Assembly: GCF_044324875.1 (NCBI RefSeq)
Contig: NZ_CP172185.1
Length of the DNA stretch: 64,000 nucleotides
Direction: 5' to 3' (one strand)
Origin: Escherichia coli
GTDB lineage: Bacteria; Pseudomonadota; Gammaproteobacteria; Enterobacterales; Enterobacteriaceae
The translations under genes were made by a program, and so were the position numbers. The notes beneath the pieces were generated by a model, which ran no database searches, was not told where the DNA came from, and worked only from the letters and a program-made list of their open reading frames with translations. This document shows, in pieces, positions 305-64,000 of this stretch (position 1 is its first letter; the number at the start of each line of letters is the position of its first letter).

Positions 305-1699
<1,395 letters not shown>

Positions 1700-1708
1700 T
1701 AAAGACAA

Positions 1709-1742
1709 GGCGCAACCTTCACGGGTTGCGCCTGTGTTTTTA
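1709..1742. terminator. GC hairpin between convergent mdtK and ydhQ, likely bidirectional terminator
   Basis: ggcgcaacc / ggttgcgcc stem followed by tgtgttttt. Confidence 0.45.
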
Positions 1743-2996
1743 CGCAGGCTGGAGCGTTGCGCCAATCCCGTCTTCGTCTGGCTGTAGTTTCAGTGCGTTA
1801 CACAGAGTTTGCCGACTGGCATCTGTTATCTCAACGTGTATATCACCAGTAACTTCCCCTTTCACATTGATGAAGTCAGGTGAAATTTCTTTCGCACTGG
1901 TTTGCAGGCAAATCGCTCCCTCTCCGCGCAGGCGTTTCACTTTCAGTTGCACATGCGTTGCCGCACCAGTGATTAGCCACAGTTTTCCGCCATTGAGATT
2001 GATGTTACCAACACTGAAAGTGACACTGTCACCTTTTACCGTACTGCCGTCGAGAATCAATACACCGCCCTGCTGTACAGTAATCGTTGATTGTTGCAGA
2101 TCTGCGCCATAGCCAATAATCATTGAAGCGCCGTCCAGTAATGCAACACTACCGGTCAGTTCAACCGGTGCGCGATCTTCCTCTACGACAAAATTTTCGT
2201 CCGCGCTGGTGGGTGACAACAGGATGACTGTCCCACCTTGTATTACCGCATTTTCCAGCGTACCGGCATGCACTTCAGCCCGCCCCCCCACATTAACGGA
2301 CAGGTTTTGCGTCTTACCGGAACTGTAGAGCTGAAGACCATCCGTACCCAGACGATAGATGCCTCCATTCTCAACAATAGTGTCAGAGTCTTCACCACCG
2401 AGATTATTCATGGTGCCACCAGCAAGCAATGTATCACTGGCTTTCCCCGCCAGCATAAAAACGCCGCCCTGATTAATCTCACAATTGCTGGCTTCCCCAC
2501 CTGGATACACCAACAATTCACCACCTTCATCTACCACGACCGCTGAGGTTGTCCCATTGACCAACAGGCCACCCTCTTGATCGAGAATAATTTTTTCCGC
2601 GCGATGGCCTTCCAGTACACGCAGGTTACCGCCATTTTCCAGCAACAAACCGCAGGCATAACCTTTATCAACGCTGAATTCACCTTCGGGATGGCGGCCA
2701 TTAACCGTAGCGAGCGTAGAGAGACTAATTGCGCCTCCCTCGGACTGAACAATATCTGTGGCAATGGCACCGTCGCTGACCGATAGCGTGCCATTGTTGC
2801 CGTACTGTGTGCATTTGGCGATCCCACCGGTTGCCACTTTCAACCAGCCAGCCCCCGTGACCACGGTATTTTCGGCTCTTCCGCCAGCTTCAACAATTAA
2901 CTCACCTTCAGTAAGTTGCGTCGCGCCAATGACCTCGCCGGTCTTAACAATTTGCACGTTCCCGTCGCTCATCAAGTTTTTCGCATCAGATCCCAT
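1740..2996 (-). CDS. ydhQ: autotransporter-adhesin-related protein
   Basis: 418-aa ORF, Gly/Thr/Asn-rich beta-helix-like repeats; position between mdtK and the tRNA-Val pair. Confidence 0.8.
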   Translation of the reverse strand: MGSDAKNLMSDGNVQIVKTGEVIGATQLTEGELIVEAGGRAENTVVTGAGWLKVATGGIAKCTQYGNNGTLSVSDGAIATDIVQSEGGAISLSTLATVNGRHPEGEFSVDKGYACGLLLENGGNLRVLEGHRAEKIILDQEGGLLVNGTTSAVVVDEGGELLVYPGGEASNCEINQGGVFMLAGKASDTLLAGGTMNNLGGEDSDTIVENGGIYRLGTDGLQLYSSGKTQNLSVNVGGRAEVHAGTLENAVIQGGTVILLSPTSADENFVVEEDRAPVELTGSVALLDGASMIIGYGADLQQSTITVQQGGVLILDGSTVKGDSVTFSVGNINLNGGKLWLITGAATHVQLKVKRLRGEGAICLQTSAKEISPDFINVKGEVTGDIHVEITDASRQTLCNALKLQPDEDGIGATLQPA

Positions 2997-3304
2997 GATT
3001 TATTCCTTTGCTGCATCTGTGTGCCTTTATTGCTACCTAAGTGTAAAGGCTACGGAGGATTTATCCACGACAGATTTTGAGATGGTGGCAAACAACTCTG
3101 TTTAAACTCTGATACACGGATTATTGGGTTGTATCTGATGTAAATGCGATCCTGAATAAAAATCGCCCTTGCAAATCAACAAAATATAGCCAATTTGCTT
3201 AAAAGCTCTGCAAACGGTCGAAATAGCGCAGAAAATTACGTTTTGCCTCTTGCCACCTTCCCACTCTGCCGCTAATATTCGTCCCCGTTGTCACCTACAA
3301 CGTT

Positions 3305-3381
3305 GCGTTCATAGCTCAGTTGGTTAGAGCACCACCTTGACATGGTGGGGGTCGTTGGTTCGAGTCCAATTGAACGCACCA
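3305..3381 (+). tRNA. valV: tRNA-Val (GAC)
   Basis: GCGTTCATAGCTCAGTTGGTTAGAGCACCACCTTGACATGGTGG...CGCACCA; cloverleaf with GAC anticodon and CCA end. Confidence 0.93.
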
Positions 3382-3385
3382 TCCT

Positions 3386-3462
3386 GCGTCCGTAGCTCAG
3401 TTGGTTAGAGCACCACCTTGACATGGTGGGGGTCGGTGGTTCGAGTCCACTCGGACGCACCA
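3386..3462 (+). tRNA. valW: tRNA-Val (GAC), tandem copy
   Basis: GCGTCCGTAGCTCAGTTGGTTAGAGCACCACCTTGACATGGTGG...CGCACCA; 4-nt spacer after valV. Confidence 0.93.
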
Positions 3463-3570
3463 GATTTTCTTAATCTGGTCTTCTCCTTTTTTCCCTCTGT
3501 TTCTTCTCTGTATCCAATACGTTAAAAGATTTACACTGTCTTCGTATGCGTTATCAGAAGGAGAATCGCT

Positions 3571-3876
3571 ATGGCAACTTTGTTACAACTTCATTTTTCT
3601 TTCAATGGCCCATTTGGCGACGCAATGGCTGAGCAGCTTAAACCGCTTGCTGAGTCGATTAATCAGGAACCTGGTTTTCTGTGGAAGGTATGGACAGAAA
3701 GTGAAAAGAACCACGAAGCCGGTGGGATCTACCTTTTTACTGATGAAAAAAGCGCCCTTGCCTATCTGGAAAAACATACTGCCCGACTGAAAAATCTCGG
3801 CGTTGAGGAAGTTGTCGCCAAAGTTTTCGATGTCAATGAGCCACTTAGTCAAATCAGTCAGGCAAAACTCGCCTGA
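3571..3876 (+). CDS. ydhR: small conserved protein (putative monooxygenase-like)
   Basis: 101-aa ORF with GGAG-type RBS; synteny. Confidence 0.8.
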
Positions 3877-5617: not shown

Positions 5618-6430
5618 TCAGCACTCAACAAACTGATGCTGTTCATTAAGGTGATAGCGGACTCCGGCTCGAATATTGTTTTCACCTTCAATGGCGACGG
5701 CGAAGCGAACTCTTTCGCCGTCATGATATGCCAGTGCGGCGCTTCCTCCTGGCCCGAGAATAATTGAGTCGACCACGCCCGTGCTCACTACCGTTGAATT
5801 TTCACCGCTGGCAATGATGTGTACATTGTCGCCGCTGTTGGCAATTCTGGCGTTTGCGCCAAAGCTGGCGATTTGCACCAGGTCACCATTACTGGCGACA
5901 TGACATCGTTCACCCAATGTACAAACGCGTACTCGCATTCCGGTATTCGCAATCCGACTACTATCTCCAGCGCTGCTTATCCGCGAAGAATTACCGGTTA
6001 CAGCAACCCGTGCGCGTTCACCGGAGCTGCCAATGTGACTGTTAAAGCCGACACTTCCAATCCGCACGCTATAACCCATACTGGCAATTTGCGCGGCATA
6101 CCCAGCAGTTGCGATTCTGGCATTATCCTCACAACAGCCGATGCGAGCATGATCGTCGCTGCGGGCAAACTGACTGCAAAATGGTCTCTCTCCGGGATCT
6201 GTGGCCAGTTTTTGCATAGAAGAAACTTCCTGATGCGCGAAGTTTTCATCCGCCAGCCATTTTTTCCACGCATACTCAACCAGACTCTCCGCCCAGTCCG
6301 TATATCCTTCCTCAATCAGTGCATGATGAATATCGGCATAACTACCGCCGCGTGGGAAATGGCGCAGGAACCAGCGATACATCACCGCTCCGATACGCCA
6401 TTCTCGCAGGTCTGCTCGTGTAATGATCAT
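5618..6430 (-). CDS. ydhT: uncharacterised protein of the ydhYVWXUT cluster
   Basis: 270-aa ORF with repetitive Gly/Ser/Asn-rich segments; synteny. Confidence 0.75.
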   Translation of the reverse strand: MIITRADLREWRIGAVMYRWFLRHFPRGGSYADIHHALIEEGYTDWAESLVEYAWKKWLADENFAHQEVSSMQKLATDPGERPFCSQFARSDDHARIGCCEDNARIATAGYAAQIASMGYSVRIGSVGFNSHIGSSGERARVAVTGNSSRISSAGDSSRIANTGMRVRVCTLGERCHVASNGDLVQIASFGANARIANSGDNVHIIASGENSTVVSTGVVDSIILGPGGSAALAYHDGERVRFAVAIEGENNIRAGVRYHLNEQHQFVEC

Positions 6431-6433
6431 TCG

Positions 6434-7219
6434 TTAGTGCCGGTGATAGCCATCGACCATGCTTTTAAAGGTTTCGTGTGGCGTACGCCCCGTGGTGCAA
6501 AGATAAAGATGACCGAAGATAAAAAAGAGGCTTATAAATGCCAGAGCAAAATGCGCCTGCAATAACCAGTATCTTACACCAGGAAACACATCTCCCACGG
6601 CTTGCGGATAGAGACACAGCAGCCCCGTCAATAGTAACAACGGCAGCAATCCATACATGACACCAATATAGGCAACCTGCTGTAAGGGATTAAATTTAGA
6701 CTGGGTTGTTGCCGGGAAAGGATGTTCTTCCCCCTGCATAATGCCAAACAAATAAAATCGCGTTTGTTTTGCCGCTCGCTCCAGCCACCCCTGACGACGA
6801 ATGCGATAGTGGTGACCATTACCCCCAACGGCATTGATCAGAACAAAGCCGAGCCAACATGCCAGTAACAAAAATCCGCAAACTTCATGCACCGCAACCA
6901 GACTTTTAACCGCAGTTGCGCCCACCAGCGCAAAGTGATTTATCAGCCCACTTGCCAGCAACAATACAAAGAGTAACGCATTCGACCAGTGCCATAATCT
7001 GACCGCTTTGCTGTAAAGATAAACCTTCTCACCATGGTCGGTGGCTGATTTCTTCACGCCACGAGCACGAAGCAAGGCATGCAGCCCCAGCACAAACCAC
7101 ATCCCTACCAGCAATAGTCCGGCAATGATCAACCACACCGGCCAAAATTGGGGAGTGAACTGTGGCACATAGTTCGCCAACTGGCTCTGAAACTGTTCAG
7201 CATGTTGCGACGGGTTCAT
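6434..7219 (-). CDS. ydhU: membrane b-type cytochrome-like subunit
   Basis: 261-aa ORF with several hydrophobic helices; 4-bp overlap with ydhX. Confidence 0.8.
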   Translation of the reverse strand: MNPSQHAEQFQSQLANYVPQFTPQFWPVWLIIAGLLLVGMWFVLGLHALLRARGVKKSATDHGEKVYLYSKAVRLWHWSNALLFVLLLASGLINHFALVGATAVKSLVAVHEVCGFLLLACWLGFVLINAVGGNGHHYRIRRQGWLERAAKQTRFYLFGIMQGEEHPFPATTQSKFNPLQQVAYIGVMYGLLPLLLLTGLLCLYPQAVGDVFPGVRYWLLQAHFALAFISLFFIFGHLYLCTTGRTPHETFKSMVDGYHRH

Positions 7220-25946: not shown

Positions 25947-27059
25947 ATGGTAAATGTTCGTCAGCCCAGGGATGTCGCACAAATTCTGCTTTCGGTGCTC
26001 TTTTTAGCCATCATGATTGTGGCATGTCTGTGGATTGTACAACCCTTTATTCTCGGCTTTGCATGGGCTGGTACGGTGGTTATCGCCACCTGGCCGGTAT
26101 TGTTACGTTTGCAAAAGATCATGTTTGGTCGCCGCTCTCTCGCCGTTCTGGTGATGACGCTGTTATTAGTGATGGTGTTTATCATCCCTATTGCCTTGCT
26201 GGTTAACAGTATCGTCGACGGCAGCGGCCCGCTAATTAAAGCCATTTCCAGCGGTGACATGACGTTACCCGATCTGGCGTGGCTTAATACCATTCCGGTG
26301 ATTGGCGCGAAGCTATATGCAGGCTGGCACAACTTGCTGGATATGGGGGGGACGGCGATCATGGCGAAAGTCCGCCCTTATATTGGCACCACCACCACCT
26401 GGTTCGTTGGGCAAGCGGCGCATATCGGGCGCTTTATGGTGCATTGTGCGCTGATGCTTCTCTTCAGTGCCCTGCTGTACTGGCGCGGTGAACAGGTGGC
26501 ACAAGGCATTCGCCATTTTGCAACCCGTCTGGCAGGCGTTCGTGGAGATGCCGCCGTGCTGCTGGCGGCACAAGCTATCCGCGCGGTGGCGCTGGGTGTT
26601 GTGGTGACAGCGTTAGTACAGGCAGTGCTTGGCGGTATCGGGCTCGCCGTATCCGGCGTACCTTATGCAACTTTGCTCACGGTGTTAATGATCCTCTCCT
26701 GCCTTGTCCAGCTTGGACCGTTGCCGGTACTGATTCCGGCGATTATCTGGCTCTACTGGACTGGCGATACCACCTGGGGAACGGTACTGTTAGTTTGGAG
26801 CGGTGTGGTTGGCACGCTGGATAACGTCATCCGCCCAATGTTAATTCGCATGGGTGCCGATTTACCGCTGATCCTGATTCTCTCTGGCGTTATTGGTGGT
26901 TTGATTGCTTTCGGGATGATCGGCCTGTTTATTGGTCCGGTTCTGTTAGCCGTTTCCTGGCGTCTTTTTGCCGCGTGGGTGGAAGAAGTCCCACCGCCGA
27001 CGGACCAACCGGAAGAAATTCTCGAAGAACTTGGCGAAATCGAGAAATCGAATAAGTAA
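25947..27059 (+). CDS. ydiK: AI-2E-family (PerM-like) inner-membrane transporter
   Basis: 370-aa polytopic ORF. Confidence 0.85.
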   Translation: MVNVRQPRDVAQILLSVLFLAIMIVACLWIVQPFILGFAWAGTVVIATWPVLLRLQKIMFGRRSLAVLVMTLLLVMVFIIPIALLVNSIVDGSGPLIKAISSGDMTLPDLAWLNTIPVIGAKLYAGWHNLLDMGGTAIMAKVRPYIGTTTTWFVGQAAHIGRFMVHCALMLLFSALLYWRGEQVAQGIRHFATRLAGVRGDAAVLLAAQAIRAVALGVVVTALVQAVLGGIGLAVSGVPYATLLTVLMILSCLVQLGPLPVLIPAIIWLYWTGDTTWGTVLLVWSGVVGTLDNVIRPMLIRMGADLPLILILSGVIGGLIAFGMIGLFIGPVLLAVSWRLFAAWVEEVPPPTDQPEEILEELGEIEKSNK

Positions 27060-27942: not shown

Positions 27943-29157
27943 ATGAAAAATCCCTATTACCCTACCGCACTGGGGTTGTATTTTAATTACCTGGTGCATG
28001 GTATGGGCGTCATTTTGATGAGCCTGAATATGGCCTCGCTGGAGACGCTTTGGCAGACTAATGCCGCGGGCGTCTCGATAGTTATCTCATCACTGGGCAT
28101 TGGTCGATTAAGTGTCTTGCTTTTTGCAGGATTATTATCCGATCGCTTTGGTCGCCGCCCTTTTATCATGCTCGGGATGTGCTGCTATATGGCCTTCTTT
28201 TTTGGCATCCTGCACACCAATAACATCATTATCGCTTATGTTTTTGGCTTTCTGGCGGGAATGGCAAACAGTTTTCTCGATGCAGGCACCTATCCCAGTT
28301 TGATGGAAGCTTTTCCACGCTCACCGGGTACAGCCAATATTTTAATTAAAGCATTTGTTTCCAGCGGGCAATTTTTATTACCGCTAATCATTAGCCTGTT
28401 AGTGTGGGCTGAACTGTGGTTCGGTTGGTCCTTTATGATTGCCGCAGGCATTATGTTTATTAACGCTCTGTTTTTATGCCGTTGTACGTTCCCACCCCAT
28501 CCGGGTCGTCGCTTACCTGTCATAAAGAAAACCACCAGCTCTACGGAACATCGCTGTTCAATTATCGATTTAGCCAGTTATACCTTATATGGCTATATCT
28601 CAATGGCAACGTTTTATCTGGTTAGCCAGTGGCTGGCACAGTACGGACAATTTGTTGCAGGCATGTCATACACTATGTCGATCAAACTACTTAGTATCTA
28701 CACCGTGGGTTCGCTGCTTTGTGTATTTATTACCGCTCCACTCATTCGTAATACCGTTCGCCCAACAACATTACTGATGCTGTACACCTTTATCTCATTT
28801 ATTGCTCTGTTTACCGTCTGCCTGCATCCCACATTTTATGTGGTGATAATATTTGCTTTTGTCATTGGTTTTACCTCTGCTGGAGGTGTTGTGCAAATTG
28901 GCCTGACGTTAATGGCTGAACGTTTCCCCTATGCTAAAGGTAAAGCTACAGGGATCTATTACAGTGCGGGCAGTATTGCAACATTTACCATTCCGTTGAT
29001 TACGGCTCATCTGTCCCAAAGAAGTATTGCCGATATTATGTGGTTCGATACCGCCATCGCTGCCATCGGCTTTTTACTGGCACTGTTTATCGGCTTACGC
29101 AGCCGCAAAGAAACGCGGCATCACTCGCTAAAGGAAAATGTCGCTCCGGGTGGGTAA
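27943..29157 (+). CDS. ydiM: MFS transporter
   Basis: 404-aa 12-TM-like ORF. Confidence 0.85.
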   Translation: MKNPYYPTALGLYFNYLVHGMGVILMSLNMASLETLWQTNAAGVSIVISSLGIGRLSVLLFAGLLSDRFGRRPFIMLGMCCYMAFFFGILHTNNIIIAYVFGFLAGMANSFLDAGTYPSLMEAFPRSPGTANILIKAFVSSGQFLLPLIISLLVWAELWFGWSFMIAAGIMFINALFLCRCTFPPHPGRRLPVIKKTTSSTEHRCSIIDLASYTLYGYISMATFYLVSQWLAQYGQFVAGMSYTMSIKLLSIYTVGSLLCVFITAPLIRNTVRPTTLLMLYTFISFIALFTVCLHPTFYVVIIFAFVIGFTSAGGVVQIGLTLMAERFPYAKGKATGIYYSAGSIATFTIPLITAHLSQRSIADIMWFDTAIAAIGFLLALFIGLRSRKETRHHSLKENVAPGG

Positions 29158-29383
29158 TGCAATATTCTTTTCAGGTCATGCAAGATCTTACGGATAAATA
29201 ACTCTTTCTGCGCTAACTAAGGAAAATCGCGATCAAAAACAAACTATGACATGCAATATTCCTGGAAACATAAACTTTATGCCATGTACCCAGGGAAAAT
29301 CATCTTCAGTATAGTAATTATGTAAACCGTCGGAGAACAATACGTACGGTAACGAAATTATCTTTCAGCAAGGAGCTGTGAAA

Positions 29384-30649
29384 ATGTCTCAAAATAAGGC
29401 TTTCAGCACGCCATTTATCCTGGCTGTTCTTTGTATTTACTTCAGCTATTTCCTGCACGGCATTAGTGTTATTACGCTTGCCCAAAATATGTCATCTCTG
29501 GCAGAAAAGTTTTCCACTGACAACGCGGGCATTGCCTATTTAATTTCCGGTATCGGTTTGGGGCGATTGATCAGTATTTTATTCTTCGGTGTGATCTCCG
29601 ATAAGTTTGGTCGTCGGGCGGTAATATTAATGGCAGTAATAATGTATCTGCTATTCTTCTTTGGTATCCCTGCTTGCCCGAATTTAACTCTCGCCTACTG
29701 TCTGGCAGTGTGCGTAGGTATCGCTAACTCAGCGCTGGATACGGGTGGCTACCCCGCGCTCATGGAATGCTTTCCGAAAGCCTCTGGTTCGGCGGTCATA
29801 CTGGTTAAAGCGATGGTGTCATTCGGGCAAATGTTCTACCCAATGCTGGTGAGCTATATGTTGCTCAATAACATCTGGTACGGCTATGGGCTGATTATTC
29901 CGGGTATTCTGTTTGTACTGATCACACTGATGCTGTTGAAAAGCAAATTCCCCAGCCAGTTGGTGGACGCCAGCGTAGCTCATGAATTACCGCAAATGAA
30001 CAGCAAACCGTTAGTCTGGCTGGAAGGTGTTTCATCGGTACTGTTCGGTGTAGCCGCATTCTCGACCTTTTATGTGATTGTGGTGTGGATGCCCAAATAT
30101 GCGATGGCTTTTGCTGGTATGTCAGAAGCTGAAGCATTAAAAACCATCTCTTATTACAGTATGGGCTCGTTGGTCTGTGTCTTTATTTTTGCCGCACTAC
30201 TGAAAAAAATGGTCCGGCCCATCTGGGCTAATGTATTTAACTCTGCACTGGCCACAATAACAGCAGCCATTATCTACCTGTACCCTTCTCCACTGGTGTG
30301 TAATGCCGGAGCCTTTGTTATCGGTTTCTCAGCAGCTGGCGGCATTTTACAGCTCGGCGTTTCGGTCATGTCAGAGTTTTTCCCCAAAAGCAAAGCCAAA
30401 GTCACCAGTATTTATATGATGATGGGTGGACTGGCTAACTTTGTTATTCCGCTGATTACCGGTTATCTGTCGAACATCGGCCTGCAATATATCATTGCTC
30501 TCGATTTTACTTTCGCGCTGCTGGCCCTGATTACCGCAATTATTGTCTTTATCCGCTATTACCGCGTTTTCATTATTCCTGAAAATGATGTGCGGTTTGG
30601 CGAGCGTAAATTTAGCACCCGGTTAAACACAATTAAGCATAGAGGTTAA
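29384..30649 (+). CDS. ydiN: MFS transporter
   Basis: Paralogous to ydiM; start at MSQNKAF. Confidence 0.8.
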
Positions 30650-56576: not shown

Positions 56577-57131
56577 ATGTACGCACTTAAACCTATGGGG
56601 ATACCAGGCAAAGCCCCGGCGCATGTGAAAGCCTGGACACAGCAGGAAGATGATTTGCTGATCACCCTGTACCCGCAGCACACAGCACGAGATATCGCCG
56701 GGCGTCTGGGGCGCAGCCACGAAGGCGTGAAGAGCCGCATTTGTCGTCTGCGTGAACAGGGCAGGATTGGCATCAAGCAGCAAAGACTAAGCGATGAGAT
56801 GATCGCCACGCTCATCAGGAACCGCCACACCAGGTCCCTCAAGGAACTGGCACACATGGCGAAAGTTTCGACACGCACGGTAACCAACCGATTGAGGGCG
56901 CTGGGCTACAGCCTGATCAAATGCGGGGATCTGCATAAAAACACCGTCTACAGCGACCGCATCGTTGAGATTATCAGACAGTTACACGACGAGCAGGGCC
57001 TGACGTTCAGGGAAATCGCACAGCGCCTTAGCCACGAACTACAGCCGAACCCTACCCCGACACTGGCTCAACGTCTCTACTGGCGGTGCACAGCATCCGA
57101 CGCCGTATTCCGTGAACTGTTACCAGATTGA
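56577..57131 (+). CDS. DNA-binding protein with three tandem HTH (Myb/SANT-like) repeats
   Basis: 184-aa ORF with ggaga RBS; three ~45-aa repeats each containing an HTH-like segment. Confidence 0.55.
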   Translation: MYALKPMGIPGKAPAHVKAWTQQEDDLLITLYPQHTARDIAGRLGRSHEGVKSRICRLREQGRIGIKQQRLSDEMIATLIRNRHTRSLKELAHMAKVSTRTVTNRLRALGYSLIKCGDLHKNTVYSDRIVEIIRQLHDEQGLTFREIAQRLSHELQPNPTPTLAQRLYWRCTASDAVFRELLPD

Positions 57132-57454
57132 GCAATCACCATGTACACACAAAAAAACCGCTTGCAACAACAAACCGGAACAGGGTACGCTTCCCCCGCA
57201 CCTCATAAAGCGGGTGCCGGGTTTCGCAGCCTGCTGACTAGCAAAGCGCACAACCGCGCCAGCGGTTTTTTTGTGCGTACTGTATTGCCACGTCTTTTTC
57301 GCATCAGAATTATGGTGGGGCGTACGGGGCCGACTTCGGTCGGGCCGGTTTCTTCGTTTGCCGGTGTTGAGAACCCCGTACGTCTCGCCACCCCGAGATT
57401 CTCAACTCTGGTTGGTGAGTATCCAAAAACTCACAAACGAAGAGGCCAAACACC

Positions 57455-57673
57455 ATGGCAAACCGCAAACAGCGCCGCGCTATCGCTGCGCAGCGTCACA
57501 TCCAGACCGAAATCAACCGCAGACTCTTCCGCGCCCACAACATCGCGCGAATCATGCACGCCAACATGCTGCATGAACGCAGTAACGCGTTATCAAACCT
57601 CTATTCCGCTTCCGTTTTCAGCTATCTGGCGGACGACCTGCGCGAGCTGCAAGACCTCATTAACCAGCACTGA
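57455..57673 (+). CDS. hypothetical protein
   Basis: 72-aa ORF with aagagg RBS. Confidence 0.5.
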   Translation: MANRKQRRAIAAQRHIQTEINRRLFRAHNIARIMHANMLHERSNALSNLYSASVFSYLADDLRELQDLINQH

Positions 57674-57745
57674 TAAACAACCCGAAGCCATCCTGCGCCC
57701 GTTCGCGGGAGGCTTCCGCACATCTGTAGTCGGGAGGATTGCGCC

Positions 57746-58114
57746 ATGATTCTGGCTGACGATTTTCTGGAGTACCTGAACAACACCGAGCGCGACCTGT
57801 ACGCGCGCGTTCTCACCCGTTACGAGAAATACAAACTTTCGCTGCCAGAACATCAACTCCGCGAAGGCGATATCGACATTGAAGGGCGCTACATCGTCAG
57901 GCACCTCATAGCGGGCTACGGCATCTGGCGTGTCACCGGACGTGAGCATTCATTGCTGACCATCTGCCAGAGTCCGTCCGGCGTGATAACGGAGATCGTC
58001 GCTGATAGTCTGCGACTCACCCATCACAGCGCCACCCCGGAAGAAACGCTGGCAGAAACCCAGCGTCTGTGTCGCGTCATTGCCAACGCCGCCCTCCGCG
58101 CAGACAGGAGGTAA
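57746..58114 (+). CDS. hypothetical protein immediately upstream of gene A
   Basis: 122-aa ORF with gggagg RBS; 3-nt gap to the A start. Confidence 0.55.
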   Translation: MILADDFLEYLNNTERDLYARVLTRYEKYKLSLPEHQLREGDIDIEGRYIVRHLIAGYGIWRVTGREHSLLTICQSPSGVITEIVADSLRLTHHSATPEETLAETQRLCRVIANAALRADRR

Positions 58115-58117
58115 GCG

Positions 58118-60292
58118 ATGGAGTTCGTCAGAGACTGGCAAAAACCGCGCCCCGCTATCGGGCGCGAAGGCTTACCCGTACCTGAAACCGCACTGGATAC
58201 CATCCTGAAGTGTTACCGCGCGGACGAAGAGCGCGCCCTGAACGCTGAAGAGCAGGGTCATCCGCTTGCGGGCACAACCATCGGTAACGCGATCGACAAG
58301 TGGGAAGGCGCACAGGAGCGCCAGGAAGAGGCCATCACGCTCACACAGGAAGCGAAGAGACGCCCACCCACCCTCATTGAGGAAACCCTCAAAGAGCTGG
58401 ACACCCTGCCAAAGTGGTTGAGGCTGCCACTGATTAAGTACCTGAACTTCTTAAGGCGCAAACAGGAGGACGAACAGCAGAAAGGCAAGCGCGGCAAGGA
58501 CACCCGCAAATATGAGCGCTTCCTGAAAAACGGCATCCCCGCACGTCTTCGCCGTATTCGTGAGATTAACGCTCGCTTTGCACCGTTAAGTTTTCAGGCC
58601 GCTGCCATGCGCGAGAGTCTGGAAGAGTTAATCACACTGCCGAACCTGAGCCGTGAACGCATCCAGAAAATAGCCGTACTGCTTGCCAGCGCCGTTAAAA
58701 TGCATCTTGCCGACGCAATGGACAAGGCCCGCGAAATAACAGGGAACGACAAAGACGACAACCTGAACAACTGGCTGATTGCCTACCAGTATATTGGTCG
58801 CCGTGTCCTGAAGCTGGGGATCACCCCACCATACTGGAGCGCCCTTGAACTCCGTCCCGACCGCAGAAGCCCCCCGGACCTGACACTGGTACCGGGCGCT
58901 GTTTTGCGCCTGAACGACGCCGAATGGTGGAATAAAAAACTTCGCCAGATGCACGACGTCTGGCGTGAGGAACTTTTACGTGCAGCGGGCCTTGTATCCC
59001 GCCAGACCTCCATTTATGTGAGCCGGGAAGCGCTGGCAGACTTCCGCGAGAAACAGGCCCGTACCCGCGATTTTCTCAAAGCGCACGACGTGGAGAACGA
59101 AGACGGCGAACGCATCAGCCTGGAAGATATCTACTACGCCAGTACATCCAACCCGCATAACCGCCGCAACGAGATGATGGCGTGCGTCAAGGGAATGGAG
59201 CTTATCGCACAGGAACGTGGCGACGTGGCCTTCTTCGTCACGGTCACAGCCCCGTCTCGTTTTCACAGCGTCACCGACGCCGGTACCCTTAACCCGAAAT
59301 ACAAAGGCACAACAGTAAAAGACGCCAGCGACTATCTGGTTTATAACTTCTTCGCCTCCGCCCGCAAACTCATCAAAAAAGAGAAGCGGGGCTGGTACGG
59401 CATTCGCACCGTGGAGCCTCACCACGACGGCACGCCCCACTGGCACATGCTGGTATTCACAAGCCCCGAGAACGAAGCGCGCATCACGGAAATCATGTGC
59501 AATGCCGCCATCCGTGAAGACCGTGCAGAGCTGGGCGACGACATTACCCCGCGCTTCAAGTGCGAGAAGATAGACCCCGAAAAAGGTACGCCAACCAGCT
59601 ACATCGCCACCTACATCGGCAAAGGCATTGACGCCGCCGCATTCGGCGACACGGATCCCAAAACAGGCAAACCGCCCGTTGACCACGAAAGCGGAAAACC
59701 TATGGCGGACACCGTGGAAAACGCCGTCGCCTGGGCACGCCTGCATCGCATTCGCCAGTTCCAGTTCTTTGGCCTTCCCTCACGTCAGGTGTGGCGCGAG
59801 TTCCGCCGCCTTGCCGGACAAATGGCACGCAACCCGAAGGGGCCGCAGGCACTGACCAACCCCAAAGCCGACGCCCTCCTTGTTGCAGCCGATACGGGGT
59901 GTTTTGCCAGCTACATCATGCATCAGGGCGGTGTGCTCATTCCCCGCAGTGAATATCTGGCCCGCACGGCCTACGTCACCGCAGAAGAGCCGAACAACTA
60001 CGGCGAGTTCCCCGACCGTATTTACGGTGTACGGATGCCGGAACTGGGCGATGAGTTCACGTTATGTACCCACCCGGAAGAGTGGAAAATCGTCAGAAAG
60101 GAACCGGAACCAGACAACCGCACGGGCGAGGGTTTTGACCTTCAGGGCGACCCCGTCGCCCCTTGGACTCGTGGCAATAACTGTCACCCTGACGAAAAAA
60201 ACAACCAACAACAGCACACAAACAGAACAGTCAGAGTGGGCAAAACTGCCCCCCTTACCCCCATCGTCGGACGGTTTTGTGAGCTGGTTTAA
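58118..60292 (+). CDS. replication initiation endonuclease (P2 gpA / 186 A family, rolling-circle)
   Basis: 724-aa ORF with caggagg RBS; HDGTPHWHMLVF metal-binding motif and YIATYIGKG active-site tyrosine region. Confidence 0.85.
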   Translation: MEFVRDWQKPRPAIGREGLPVPETALDTILKCYRADEERALNAEEQGHPLAGTTIGNAIDKWEGAQERQEEAITLTQEAKRRPPTLIEETLKELDTLPKWLRLPLIKYLNFLRRKQEDEQQKGKRGKDTRKYERFLKNGIPARLRRIREINARFAPLSFQAAAMRESLEELITLPNLSRERIQKIAVLLASAVKMHLADAMDKAREITGNDKDDNLNNWLIAYQYIGRRVLKLGITPPYWSALELRPDRRSPPDLTLVPGAVLRLNDAEWWNKKLRQMHDVWREELLRAAGLVSRQTSIYVSREALADFREKQARTRDFLKAHDVENEDGERISLEDIYYASTSNPHNRRNEMMACVKGMELIAQERGDVAFFVTVTAPSRFHSVTDAGTLNPKYKGTTVKDASDYLVYNFFASARKLIKKEKRGWYGIRTVEPHHDGTPHWHMLVFTSPENEARITEIMCNAAIREDRAELGDDITPRFKCEKIDPEKGTPTSYIATYIGKGIDAAAFGDTDPKTGKPPVDHESGKPMADTVENAVAWARLHRIRQFQFFGLPSRQVWREFRRLAGQMARNPKGPQALTNPKADALLVAADTGCFASYIMHQGGVLIPRSEYLARTAYVTAEEPNNYGEFPDRIYGVRMPELGDEFTLCTHPEEWKIVRKEPEPDNRTGEGFDLQGDPVAPWTRGNNCHPDEKNNQQQHTNRTVRVGKTAPLTPIVGRFCELV

Positions 60293-60608
60293 GTCGCTTA
60301 AGAGGCCGGACAGGAAAAAACTACAAAGATTGCTCAAAAAACGCACCGAAGAGAGTCGCCAGAACGCCAGCGGCGGCACCGACACACCCACCGACACCAT
60401 TAACCTGGGCGTTGTGCTGCCGGAACTGCCGGAAATCGTGCAAGTCCGCCGCGATCTGGAAGCGCTGGGCGCGGACTTCCCCGAAGCAATGGCCCATTCC
60501 GTCTTTATGGGTGCCCGCGTTCGTCTGGGTGACGGTCGCACCGTTCACCGCGACGAGCAGACCGGGCGCATCACCGTCACCAGTCTGCAACCGGAGGCGA
60601 AACCATGA
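60279..60608 (+). CDS. possible small protein coupled to the A stop (start uncertain)
   Basis: In-frame GTG at 60279 overlapping the A stop; C-terminal part looks coding and ends in an ATGA overlap with the next gene. The upstream part of track ORF 59880..60608 lies inside A in another frame. Confidence 0.35.
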   Translation: MSWFKSLKRPDRKKLQRLLKKRTEESRQNASGGTDTPTDTINLGVVLPELPEIVQVRRDLEALGADFPEAMAHSVFMGARVRLGDGRTVHRDEQTGRITVTSLQPEAKP

Positions 60609-61015
60609 ACCGTTATCATTGTGTACTGCCGCGCCACTACTTCGGTCAGATTATGCGCTCGCGTATTCCGGCGGTCACGCTGCGAAACCTGAGCACGGTA
60701 CCGCAGCCGGGCGATGAGCTGGAAATCGCCGTAGCAGGCCCTGACCGTTCAGCCAGCTGCGTGACCGCCGACGTGCTGAACGCCGTGCCCGTAGGTGGTG
60801 ACTGGCTGGTTGCCATCCGCTTCCGCCAAGACCCGTTCGCACCTGAACCGCTCACCCCCGCAGGCCGCATCATGCAGAACTGGCGGGATGAAGGCGCGAA
60901 GGCGAACTGCGAAAAACTGATTAACAGGATTGCCACGACAAACCGACATGCCGCGCTGGCGCGCCGGATATACCCCGCAAAATCAACACAACCAACAGGA
61001 GTAAAAGGCCCATGA
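60605..61015 (+). CDS. ASCH/PUA-like domain protein
   Basis: 136-aa ORF; N-terminal pattern YHCVLPRHYFGQIMRSRIPAVTLRN...GDELEI resembles ASCH domains. Confidence 0.5.
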   Translation: MNRYHCVLPRHYFGQIMRSRIPAVTLRNLSTVPQPGDELEIAVAGPDRSASCVTADVLNAVPVGGDWLVAIRFRQDPFAPEPLTPAGRIMQNWRDEGAKANCEKLINRIATTNRHAALARRIYPAKSTQPTGVKGP

Positions 61016-61278
61016 AAAGAATCGCCGGAACTGACTACCAGGAGCTGCTTAAAGCGGTGGAAAACTACCGTTCAGCGCTGGTGTGGTGTGAGATTAAGCC
61101 CTGTGACCCGGGAGCAGTTAAGGATTGCAACCGGGCGCGTGAGGACATTCAGCGCGTAATTGGCTACCGCTATGTAGCAGCCATTATTGACCTTGTGAAT
61201 GAACTGGAGGAAGCAAAAGAGCGCATCGCAGAACTGGAAACCCAGAATAACCCCAACCAGCAGGAGCAGAAGCCATGA
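61012..61278 (+). CDS. hypothetical protein
   Basis: 88-aa ORF, ATGA overlap on both sides. Confidence 0.5.
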   Translation: MKRIAGTDYQELLKAVENYRSALVWCEIKPCDPGAVKDCNRAREDIQRVIGYRYVAAIIDLVNELEEAKERIAELETQNNPNQQEQKP

Positions 61279-61856
61279 AAAAAAGAGACCTTAAAAAACA
61301 CCTCCGTAGTCAGATTGAATATTTTGAAGATAAGGCTGCAAAAACAGGGCTTTCCGGTAAAGAGAACATGAACTTCAGGGCACACCTCCTGACGTGGAGA
61401 ATACTTAATATCACGAGAGATGGACTTGAGCCGCTAGCCTACCTGATGGAAGATGGCGAGACCCTCATACAGGATCCCAATGTGGAAATGGAGAAGAAAG
61501 AGATGGACCTGCCGATAATCGGGCTGTTTGAGATCCCTGAACTAATAGGACGTTATGAACACGAAAACCGCCAGCTTGCCGCCTTTTTATCCGTGACAAT
61601 CGAACGACTGGAAGCCGTGAAACACGATATTCCGTTCGGTTTTGATGAGCGCACCGAGGGTGATTTGCTCAGCTTTCAGATTGCCCTGAACGTGCTCACC
61701 GCAGAGCCTTCTGCGTGGCTACGCCCGGAACGGCACCACAACACGTTCGCATTTACCGTAATTCCCTACGATGCCGCACAGGAAGAGGATAACTTCGAGA
61801 CCAGGCTTGTTCCCCTGTATCAGATTGCGGATTTCTATACGTTGATTCGCTGGTAA
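61275..61856 (+). CDS. hypothetical protein, last gene of the coupled block
   Basis: 193-aa ORF followed by a strong terminator. Confidence 0.55.
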   Translation: MKKRDLKKHLRSQIEYFEDKAAKTGLSGKENMNFRAHLLTWRILNITRDGLEPLAYLMEDGETLIQDPNVEMEKKEMDLPIIGLFEIPELIGRYEHENRQLAAFLSVTIERLEAVKHDIPFGFDERTEGDLLSFQIALNVLTAEPSAWLRPERHHNTFAFTVIPYDAAQEEDNFETRLVPLYQIADFYTLIRW

Positions 61857-61870
61857 TCCCCCACAGTAAA

Positions 61871-61895
61871 ACAGCCCGACCGGGCTGTTTTTTTA
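61871..61895 (+). terminator. rho-independent terminator ending the early/replication operon
   Basis: acagcccg ac cgggctgt followed by ttttttt. Confidence 0.8.
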
Positions 61896-61951
61896 TCTGA
61901 TATTTTTGATAACGTTGACCGGCTCATTAGCAAAAAAGCAAAGAGGAAAAC

Positions 61952-62338
61952 ATGAAAGCCCGTATCGGGATCATCCCGGAAAAAGCCCTGCGCCAGCACC
62001 TGATTGATATTGCCAGAGGGAAGCGAAAACCACAGCCCGACGAGCCAAAGGTATGGTTTTCATCCATCAATGCGGCAGGCCAGACGCTGAGCAATGAAAA
62101 TATCGCCCTTCTGCGTCTTATGAATGAGGAGAAGCCGCAGACCATGACCGCACTTGCGGAGTTATCCGGCAGAAAACTGAGCAACCTGTCTGTAACCCTG
62201 AAAATGCTGAGCAGCTACGGTTTTGTCAGTCTGGAAAAGAAAGGGAATACTGTACACCCGAAAGCACTTTTTACCGATTTTGAAATCATCGTTGATCCGT
62301 CCGTGGGTTCAGTACATCGCGCCACCGCCCGGCCCTGA
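61952..62338 (+). CDS. putative winged-helix transcriptional regulator
   Basis: 128-aa ORF with aagagga RBS; HTH-like segment MTALAELSGRKLSNLSVTLKMLSSYGFVS. Confidence 0.55.
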   Translation: MKARIGIIPEKALRQHLIDIARGKRKPQPDEPKVWFSSINAAGQTLSNENIALLRLMNEEKPQTMTALAELSGRKLSNLSVTLKMLSSYGFVSLEKKGNTVHPKALFTDFEIIVDPSVGSVHRATARP

Positions 62339-62350
62339 AGTGCGCAATAA

Positions 62351-62375
62351 ACAGCCCCGTTCGGGGCTGTTATTT
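62351..62375. terminator. bidirectional terminator between convergent genes
   Basis: acagcccc gttc ggggctgt with T-rich flanks on both strands. Confidence 0.7.
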
Positions 62376-62748
62376 ATTCCAGAATCAGCTGTTCAGGTGT
62401 GCAGCCGTACAGTCTGGCAAGGCGCTCAATATTTGCCCTGCGCGGGCGTTCCGTTCTTTCGAATTCGGACACGGTAGCCTGCCTGATACCCAGCGCATCC
62501 GCCACCTGCTTTTGCGTCATTCCGCGATAGATTCGCCACGCCGCCTGCATTGTGCAGCCACGCTCCGAGAGAATGTTAACCACCTCGTTGGGATACAGCG
62601 TATCAGGCGATGCACACGGTTCGTTCTGGACGTCCTCGTAGAGTTCGTCAAGGTCGCTGTCTCCTGCCAGTTTTTCAAACAACGCCACTGGCAGAATGAC
62701 GGACACCCTGTTACCCGCACCGTCAGTAATAAACTGAATCTGACTCAT
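62374..62748 (-). CDS. HigA-like antitoxin (XRE-family HTH at C-terminus)
   Basis: 124-aa ORF with aggaggg RBS; C-terminal MTQKQVADALGIRQATVSEFERT HTH. Confidence 0.65.
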   Translation of the reverse strand: MSQIQFITDGAGNRVSVILPVALFEKLAGDSDLDELYEDVQNEPCASPDTLYPNEVVNILSERGCTMQAAWRIYRGMTQKQVADALGIRQATVSEFERTERPRRANIERLARLYGCTPEQLILE

Positions 62749-62802
62749 TTACCCCTCCTGCTAAACATCGGTTTATTTTTTAATTTGCTGCCGGTGATAA
62801 AA

Positions 62803-62821
62803 AACGGCGGGTCGCCCCGCC
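62803..62821 (-). terminator. intrinsic-terminator-like hairpin between toxin and antitoxin ORFs
   Basis: Minus strand reads taa-ggcggg gcga cccgcc-GTTTTTT immediately after the toxin stop. Confidence 0.5.
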
Positions 62822-63073
62822 TTAGTATGTTGTCGAGGTTCTCCGCTGAATACGGAGGATCCTGATAACCACTATCTGCCCTCCCTCAATCGTGAACCTG
62901 ACACGGTAATGATTTACCCTGAGTCTGTACTCCCCGCCCGAGTCAGTGAGCTTTTTAATATCCAGATTCTGGAACTTCGGATAGCCATAAAGCGCGTTAA
63001 CTTTCTCGCGTAAGGATTTCTGATCCCTCGCTGGCAAAACCCGTAAATCTTTGATTGCCCGAGGGGTCCACAT
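62822..63073 (-). CDS. RelE/ParE-superfamily toxin (HigB-like)
   Basis: ...KKLTDSGGEYRLRVNHYRVRFTIEGGQIVVIRILRIQRR pattern; start may be 63073 (MWTPRAIKDL) or 63094. Confidence 0.65.
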   Translation of the reverse strand: MWTPRAIKDLRVLPARDQKSLREKVNALYGYPKFQNLDIKKLTDSGGEYRLRVNHYRVRFTIEGGQIVVIRILRIQRRTSTTY

Positions 63074-63139
63074 GATTTCAGTCGTCATAAACACACCGGA
63101 AGCAAATTATTAAAGAGCCGTGCCCGCTGGCACACCTTA

Positions 63140-63183
63140 AATATAGGTTTTAACCCCTATATTGTCAAACAAAATCCCTATAT
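63140..63183. promoter_or_regulatory. repeat cluster upstream of the toxin gene, putative operator
   Basis: Inverted repeat AATATAGG-n8-CCTATATT plus a third CCCTATAT copy 13 bp further. Confidence 0.45.
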
Positions 63184-63677
63184 CATGAAGTAAAAAAGCA
63201 CCTCCCGCGACCTCCCTTTCCGGTGCACGAAAGTGCACAAATTTGCACAATTTTTTTGAACGACTTTTTGCCCTTCCGGCCCGTGTGGCGTCTGGATCCG
63301 TCGGGGATCCGTGCGTGCACGAAAAAAGGCCTTTTTCTGCGCGCAGGTGACGGGGGAACAGCCCGCGTTTCAGGGGGTAAATAGCATTCCCTGAACGATG
63401 TTGCAGTGACACAACAGAATGGCTGTATTTCTCACGCTGAGCGTGAAAAAGACGTAAGGGCTTTTGATTTGATGGGGTGAAAGATAAGGCCGTCAAAATC
63501 GCACTGAGGCAGCGAGAATATGTCGTCAGAGTTGCGGGGTTGCGTAAGCATCCGCCCGGCGATGATGGCTACAGGGCTGGAGATGTTGTGAAATTATCTG
63601 AAGGAATAACCAGCTTGCAGGAGAACCCGGGCAAAGTCAGAATAGCGGCAGGCATCAACTCAAAAGAGGATAATGTC

Positions 63678-64000
63678 ATGAGCCACTTTAATGATTTATG
63701 CCAGATCAATCGTGAAGCTGAAGAAAAACGCGCTGAGGCAGCTCAAATTTTGCGGGATGAAGCGGCAAGGCTGATTGATTTCTATGAAGAATGGCTGGGG
63801 CTTCCATCCATGTACTGGGAAGACGATGATGGCGACCTGCACCGCTACGTGGAGACAGGCTTGCCATGTAAGACAGCGGCGGATTTTAGTCCTCTTTCAG
63901 TCCACAATATCGCATCTGCACCAGACAATATTTTCCGCATGGCCGTGCGAACCTGGGTTAAGTCATCTGACAGCAGCTACCCGGTAAGCGTGGTTATTGC
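63678..64000 (+). CDS. hypothetical protein, 5' part only (runs off window end)
   Basis: ATG at 63678 with aaagagga RBS; frame open to 64000. Not in the ORF track because no stop is reached; in-frame GTG/TTG alternatives up to 63477. Confidence 0.5.
   Translation, partial: MSHFNDLCQINREAEEKRAEAAQILRDEAARLIDFYEEWLGLPSMYWEDDDGDLHRYVETGLPCKTAADFSPLSVHNIASAPDNIFRMAVRTWVKSSDSSYPVSVVI

Follow-up and report, generated by a model that had tools for sequence, protein, structure and literature searches.

The subject of this analysis is a block of small open reading frames (ORFs) at positions 60279 to 61856 of a 64,000-nucleotide stretch of the Escherichia coli contig NZ_CP172185.1 (assembly GCF_044324875.1), which we refer to throughout as the window. 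The block lies directly 3' of gene A, the replication initiator gene of a P2-like (Peduoviridae) prophage, and it is an ordinary early-operon end that holds three small overlapping genes, not four. The original prediction had counted four translationally coupled genes after gene A. Coupled small genes do occupy the interval, but the first of them (60279-60608) is, judged by sequence comparison, the C-terminal coding part of gene A and not an independent gene. This 109-amino-acid (aa) ORF appears separate because the window has a run of seven A residues (A7) at a site where 13 other loci have six (A6). We consider it very likely that a P2-like prophage is integrated beside btuC and that its early lytic (replication) operon ends in this interval, with a frameshifted gene A, three coupled genes, and a terminator.

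Between positions 27000 and 51900, the window is host chromosome and shares 99.4% identity with complete E. coli genomes over ydiK-btuC, and the prophage starts just beyond btuC. Judging by an annotated relative (L001; loci fetched for comparison carry L numbers), the prophage gene order is integrase, repressor, early genes, and gene A, with the portal and terminase genes farther along. The features that concern us are the following.

58118-60292, + strand: gene A, truncated allele (rolling-circle replication initiator), 724 aa, the last 30 out of frame
60195-60201, + strand: A7 homopolymer, the frameshift site; relatives have A6, in GAC GAA AAA ACA (D-E-K-T)
60201-60608, + strand: C-terminal part of the gene A coding region, displaced into the +1 frame, including the 60279-60608 ORF
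60605-61015, + strand: ORF2, 136 aa, pI 9.9; predicted ASCH/PUA-like beta-barrel (residues 1-73) and long C-terminal helix (85-122)
61012-61278, + strand: ORF3, 88 aa, pI 5.0; Cys-containing N-terminal part and heptad-like C-terminus, likely a coiled-coil
61275-61856, + strand: ORF4, 193 aa, pI 5.0; tandem duplication of a module of ~95 aa
61032-61889, + strand: mosaic (cargo) segment, comprising most of ORF3, all of ORF4, and the terminator
61868-61891, + strand: intrinsic terminator closing the early operon; 10-bp stem with 5 G-C pairs, then a T run

All four ORFs, the first of which has a GTG start, lie on the same strand, and all three internal junctions are ATGA, with the stop TGA of one frame overlapping the ATG of the next. 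Each of the three later genes is preceded by a Shine-Dalgarno sequence that lies within the gene upstream of it: GGAGG at 60593-60597 for ORF2 (7 nt from the ATG), AGGAG at 60997-61001 for ORF3 (10 nt), and AGGAG at 61262-61266 for ORF4 (8 nt). Ribosomes completing one gene would restart on the next, and the early promoter would transcribe the block only upon infection or induction. The original prediction had described the junctions as ATGA or GTG. The ATGA junctions are as described, but the GTG at 60279 lies inside the A frame of every A6 relative. The strong terminator that it placed at the end of the block is present, and a similar hairpin stands 3' of the ORF4 homologue in L006. Frame conservation, which the original prediction had raised, holds for ORF2 to ORF4 in relatives, and the block of 136, 88, and 193 aa is identical in 8 further assemblies.

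As it stands in the window, gene A matches the Pfam family Phage_GPA (E 9e-101) and phrog_91, "nicking at origin of replication" (E 8e-216). In a close relative, E. coli LH50-c (L002), the RefSeq gene A is 2490 nt long and encodes an 829-aa replication endonuclease that ends exactly at the start of ORF2, with no separate small gene annotated between the two. A base-by-base alignment of the window against L002 over 3.6 kb contained a single indel, A7 against A6, and deleting one A from the window yields an 829-aa protein that is 98.4% identical to the L002 A protein. Annotation or gene calling gives an A of 829 aa in L002, L006, L015, L017 to L019, and L022. Among all the loci that we fetched, A6 is found in 13 (a count in which L001 and L016 enter separately, although they are one genome record), and A7 is found only in the window and in L014. 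Likewise, nine of nine complete E. coli genomes that have the region are 1 nt shorter than the window across the site, and these same nine genomes are annotated with a replication endonuclease followed by a hypothetical protein.

The 109-aa ORF itself behaves like the end of gene A. It aligns with the unbroken A proteins of two more distant prophages, L003 and L004, at residues 729-829 (35-38% identity, E ~1e-15); these A proteins are ~55% identical and 836 and 838 aa long. The valine of its GTG start is not conserved in these proteins, which have E or A at that position. When the window was compared to L006, synonymous and nonsynonymous differences stood at 15:16 in the shifted frame, compared to 7:23 and 4:26 in the other two. 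In addition, gene A matches positions 185-620 of the phrog_6857 profile and the 109-aa ORF matches positions 633-722, an order that a single protein would show and that supports the ORF as the end of A. A word-indexed homologue search with this first ORF returned two fragments only and was uninformative, the alignments with relatives deciding the matter instead, and a tblastn search with it against 50,697 phage records found no match. The normal gene A thus encodes an 829-aa rolling-circle initiator whose TGA overlaps the ATG of the next gene, and one extra A in the run shifts the frame in the window, so that A stops at 60292 and its last 135 codons are left as a spurious separate ORF.

Homopolymers are typical error sites, and the extra A could be a sequencing or assembly error, in which case the true genome would have an intact 829-aa A followed by three coupled genes. 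The presence of A6 in thirteen related loci fits this explanation, as does the state of L001 (NZ_CP182371.1), another record of the same prophage, in which obvious homopolymer deletions break A elsewhere. These are two single-base deletions in C runs, matching window positions 58035 and 58870, through which the L001 gene A is annotated in three pieces (462, 765, and 1704 nt); they are probably homopolymer errors. However, an independent draft assembly, GCA_049006665.1 (L014), has the same A7 and differs from the window by one single-nucleotide polymorphism in 6687 nt. Moreover, the exact truncated 724-aa protein is present in NCBI under three accessions, as "replication endonuclease." The host flank differs from that of a close relative by only two indels in 24.9 kb, both of them intergenic, and a flank without coding indels implies that the assembly is not error-ridden. 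Given the shared A7, the exact protein records, and the clean flank, we judge an error to be unlikely and favor, with considerable confidence, a real frameshift allele that exists in a small clone.

A real allele might still express four genes, if the 109-aa ORF were translated from GTG 60279 by restart after the TAA at 60290-60292. Such a restart would give a split but working A and would restore the coupling of ORF2. The new A stop comes 11 nt after this GTG, which is itself preceded by a weak GGACGG, and the gene caller also gave the 109-aa ORF in L014. Nevertheless, the start codon is not conserved in L003 and L004, the region is the in-frame C-terminus of A in 13 of the 15 loci, and among the relatives only the A7 allele of L014 has a separate 109-aa gene call. 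We regard a split gene as quite improbable, and the call made in GCA_049006665.1 indicates that gene callers repeat the four-gene mistake.

The A run might alternatively be a programmed recoding site, at which +1 ribosomal or transcriptional slippage gives both the 724-aa and the 829-aa forms of A. Read in phase with gene A, A AAA AAC (60196-60202) is a classic slippery heptamer; tRNA-Lys is prone to slip on runs of A, and a +1 shift there would exactly recreate the protein sequence of the relatives. This heptamer favors -1 slippage, however, and not the +1 that would be needed. We rejected -1 frameshifting at the site, because the -1 frame ends at TGA 60280-60282, short of the A tail. The relatives, for their part, encode the long form in one frame with A6, and the out-of-frame arrangement is not conserved, which makes a programmed frameshift extremely improbable. 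More generally, we see a slim chance that the A7 allele is alive, supplying its initiator either as a catalytic 724-aa part plus a 109-aa tail restarted at GTG 60279 or as a minority of full-length protein made by +1 slippage. If this were true, the A7 allele would provide a natural case of a split or recoded rolling-circle initiator, and the lineage-specific A tail downstream of the origin would be a separable module.

If the A7 is instead a plain frameshift allele, as we favor, it would truncate A and uncouple ORF2 from it, and the prophage would probably be impaired in replication. The frameshift swaps the last 135 residues of A for 30 out-of-frame residues. Upstream of the shift, the translation of A shows an HUH-like motif (PHWHMLVF) and a tyrosine motif (YIATYIGK). 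Inside gene A, the segment at 60135-60184 (+ strand) can be aligned with the sequences annotated as origin nick region in P2 and 186 (...GGACTCGTGGCAATAACTGT), and this predicted origin lies ~10 nt upstream of the A run. DNA homology to other P2-like A genes ends at ~60200-60240, just past the predicted origin, so what has been lost is the part of A that varies by lineage. The frameshift is probably the sign of a prophage on the way to a replication defect.

ORF2, the first true gene after A, belongs to a small family, with 8 clusters among 5.8 billion proteins that are 45-99% identical to it. Its homologues are 40-87% identical in the family alignment, and wherever the context could be seen (L002-L004, L006-L009, and L015-L022) the gene stands directly after A and overlaps it. 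ORF2 matched no Pfam family at E <= 1 and no NCBIfam or PADLOC family, and four of its homologues had no Pfam match of any kind at E <= 5, and so neither to ASCH (PF04266) nor to DUF3850 (PF12961). A tblastn search with ORF2 against the 50,697 phage records found no match, and its profile returned nothing meaningful when compared against PDB sequences. The original prediction had recognized an ASCH/PUA-like protein here and had suggested hidden Markov model (HMM) searches. The searches for ASCH gave no match, but the predicted fold agrees with the assignment. An AlphaFold2 model built from a nine-sequence alignment (mean predicted local distance difference test [pLDDT] score, 81) has strands at residues 3-9, 23-26, 38-44, 50-63, and 66-73, a helix at 10-18, and then the long helix at 85-122. 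The model thus has a beta-barrel with helix alpha1 between strands beta1 and beta2, as in the ASCH/PUA-like superfamily.

ASCH proteins carry a GxKxxExR motif in the alpha1-beta2 region, where it lines a cavity that binds a ligand or metal (PMC6803910). ORF2 differs from ASCH domain proteins in having neither this motif nor a Pfam ASCH match: its residues 18-27 read RSRIPAVTLR, without Gly, Lys, or Glu, and the family-invariant positions in this region are P22, T25, and L26. Its sequence identity to the ASCH proteins 3iuw, PH0355 (2z0t), E. coli YqfB (9kyf), and Zymomonas ASCH (5guq) is 12-15%. Because the cavity motif has been lost, ORF2 would seem to be a binder rather than an enzyme. From the model and the basic character of the protein (pI 9.9), we tentatively suggest, at somewhat less than even chances, that ORF2 binds nucleic acid (single-stranded DNA or RNA) and aids A-dependent replication or early expression.

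Over the two genes that follow, the homology of the window to L002 breaks off at 61031 and picks up again at 61890, and the GC content drops from ~0.62 to ~0.47 across the 61031 boundary. L002 replaces the segment with a 20-nt remnant of ORF3 and a DUF6516 gene. The corresponding place in L006, directly after ORF2, holds a homologue of ORF4 with 53% identity, and there is no ORF3. ORF3 and ORF4 are therefore exchangeable cargo, not core early genes. The original prediction had proposed conserved phage early functions for the block, a description that does not suit these two mosaic genes, which are absent or replaced in close relatives; its verdict of low novelty but poor characterization was a fair one. 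In L020 and L021 (gene A at 1024-3597), the same ORF2-ORF3-ORF4 block stands behind an 857-aa A, not an 829-aa A, and so the cargo block has been paired with different A alleles.

The acidic ORF3 (pI 5.0), whose exact sequence is present on 360 contigs, has a partial match to phrog_16519 (E 2e-10 over 62 of 324 profile positions). Its residues 12-71 also show a weak, partial tblastn match to the N-terminus of EaA from P22-like Salmonella phages (36.7% identity, E 4e-4). ORF4, which is likewise acidic (pI 5.0, net charge about -11), is a near-orphan, with 5 hits among 1.84 billion representatives. Homologues of it occupy the same slot in other P2-like prophages (L007 to L009), and another lies in the early-left accessory region of the lambdoid prophage L010. 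The ORF4 model (pLDDT 86; predicted template modeling score, 0.82) consists of one module repeated twice, each copy of ~95 aa with a helical hairpin, a small sheet, and a helix, and with the motif DIPFGFDExTE...IAL..LTA.P.AW. The duplication is significant by sequence in the homologue P0014 (score of 84 versus 23±4 for shuffles) and is not significant by sequence in ORF4 itself. The model had no informative structural match, PDB sequence searches with ORF3 and with the ORF4 profile returned nothing, and neither protein had a significant match in Pfam or NCBIfam.

The L010 homologue, P0015 (188 aa; L010 positions 6001-6567), carries a single ORF4 module at its N-terminus, with the motif EIPFGFDEDTE...IAL..LTAQP..W, and has a different C-terminal part; its gene follows RecT. 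Because a lambdoid prophage protein carries one copy of it, the ORF4 module moves between phage types. With low confidence, we suggest that ORF3 and ORF4 have protein-binding accessory roles. Acidic and fast-evolving, they would bind a host or competitor-phage protein, whether in host takeover, exclusion, or counter-defence. The duplicated ORF4 module, which is uncharacterised, and the recurring pairing of A with an ASCH-like protein are the most useful leads to come from the block.

The position of ORF3 and ORF4 also raises the question of whether, with or without ORF2, they are a system for anti-phage defence or superinfection exclusion. Their place is the variable region from A to portal, in which P2 has old and tin. 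They are mosaic and are exchanged for a DUF6516/HVO_A0114 pair in L002, and a RelE/ParE-type toxin-antitoxin pair is next door. Yet ORF2, ORF3, and ORF4 match no known defence family (no PADLOC-DB match at E <= 0.1 for any of the three), and no enzymatic or sensor domain was detected in them. The genes are also inside the early lytic operon, upstream of its terminator, and a consensus scan found no promoter of their own. For these two reasons lytic expression is expected, and the genes would be silent in the lysogen, unlike the lysogen-expressed old and tin of P2. We consider a defence role distinctly unlikely and retain the reading of ORF3 and ORF4 as exchangeable early cargo.

The neighborhood of the block has some features of its own. 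Past the terminator lies an HVO_A0114-family DNA-binding gene (61952-62338, + strand) whose usual upstream partner is gone. In L002 a DUF6516 gene overlaps the HVO_A0114 gene, and the window keeps only the last ~60 nt of that partner (61890-61951), so the HVO_A0114 gene looks like the orphaned half of a two-gene module. We set aside the idea that ORF4 is a replacement toxin partner for it, as a strong terminator lies between the two and the 3' remnant of the true partner is still in place. Between A and portal there is also a convergent toxin-antitoxin pair (62374-63094, - strand), formed by helix-turn-helix (XRE-type) and RelE/ParE-family toxin genes. An Rfam scan of positions 57000-64000 had no match inside the block. 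It did identify, upstream of gene A, an isrK Hfq-binding RNA (57198-57272, + strand, 64.7 bits) and a C4 antisense RNA (57308-57395, + strand, 79.2 bits), both above the gathering score and just upstream of a "derepression protein" gene (57455-57673). This region, although within a P2-like prophage, looks like the P1/P7-type antisense-RNA control of an antirepressor.

Comparison with P2 and 186 places ORF2 in a broader setting. In P2, gene A (28034-30319) is followed by Orf91 (30316-30645; NP_046796.1), which matches DUF3850 (E 1e-16) and ASCH (E 2e-10). The original prediction had pointed to P2 and 186 for synteny. P2 bears this out, since Orf91 overlaps A by ATGA, but in 186 no gene comes directly after A, and in P88 the position is taken by ParM. 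Orf91 resembles ORF2 in being small (109 versus 136 aa), in standing directly 3' of A with the ATGA overlap, and in having a PUA-like/ASCH beta-barrel, which in ORF2 is predicted from the model. The two differ in that Orf91 has the canonical GKKRAEFR where ORF2 has RSRIPAVTLR. The model of ORF2 further predicts a long basic helix at the C-terminus. The function of Orf91 is listed as "unknown" in Table 4 of one source (PMC3091744), and a methods passage of a preprint terms it "an essential protein," with no data in that passage (PMC12407873). From position and predicted fold, we infer that ORF2 is the counterpart of P2 Orf91.

Several observations weigh against our account of the block. The HUH-type and tyrosine motifs of A and the predicted origin are all upstream of the shift, and the A7 may or may not abolish A function. 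ORF2 matches neither Pfam ASCH nor DUF3850, its assignment resting on a model predicted from nine sequences, and its lack of GxKxxExR weakens any transfer of function from ASCH proteins. A direct hhalign comparison of the ORF2 family with P2 Orf91 detected no similarity (probability 0.14%, E 0.42). Neither P88 nor 186 has an ASCH-like gene after A, yet both replicate, and a replication role for ORF2 therefore cannot be general. Finally, searches of PADLOC, Pfam, NCBIfam, and PDB point to no specific target for ORF3 or ORF4.

The A protein of the window shares with those of P2 and 186 the GPA domain (Phage_GPA, PF05840) and an origin-nick-like sequence inside the gene. It differs from them in that its 135-aa tail has been frameshifted off, a tail that is lineage-specific and has no tblastn match in the phage records. 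ORF3 and ORF4 resemble the "ea" genes of lambdoid and P22-like phages (EaA; phrog_16519 and phrog_660), which are likewise small, nonessential-looking early genes. For the ORF4 module the match is to phrog_660, and for ORF3 it is a weak one to the N-terminus of EaA. These matches are weak (E 4e-4 to 5e-3) and partial, however, and ORF3 and ORF4 are in a P2-like early-right operon instead. For ORF2 the closest known system is Orf91. Because these two share position and predicted fold, the pair may represent an ASCH-fold partner that recurs with gpA and has an as yet undefined role in P2-type replication. P2 and this prophage both place an apparent ASCH-fold protein directly behind A and coupled to it. 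P2-type phages thus do so repeatedly, even where no sequence similarity remains, and the recurrence of this pairing makes the long-unknown role of P2 Orf91 worth testing.

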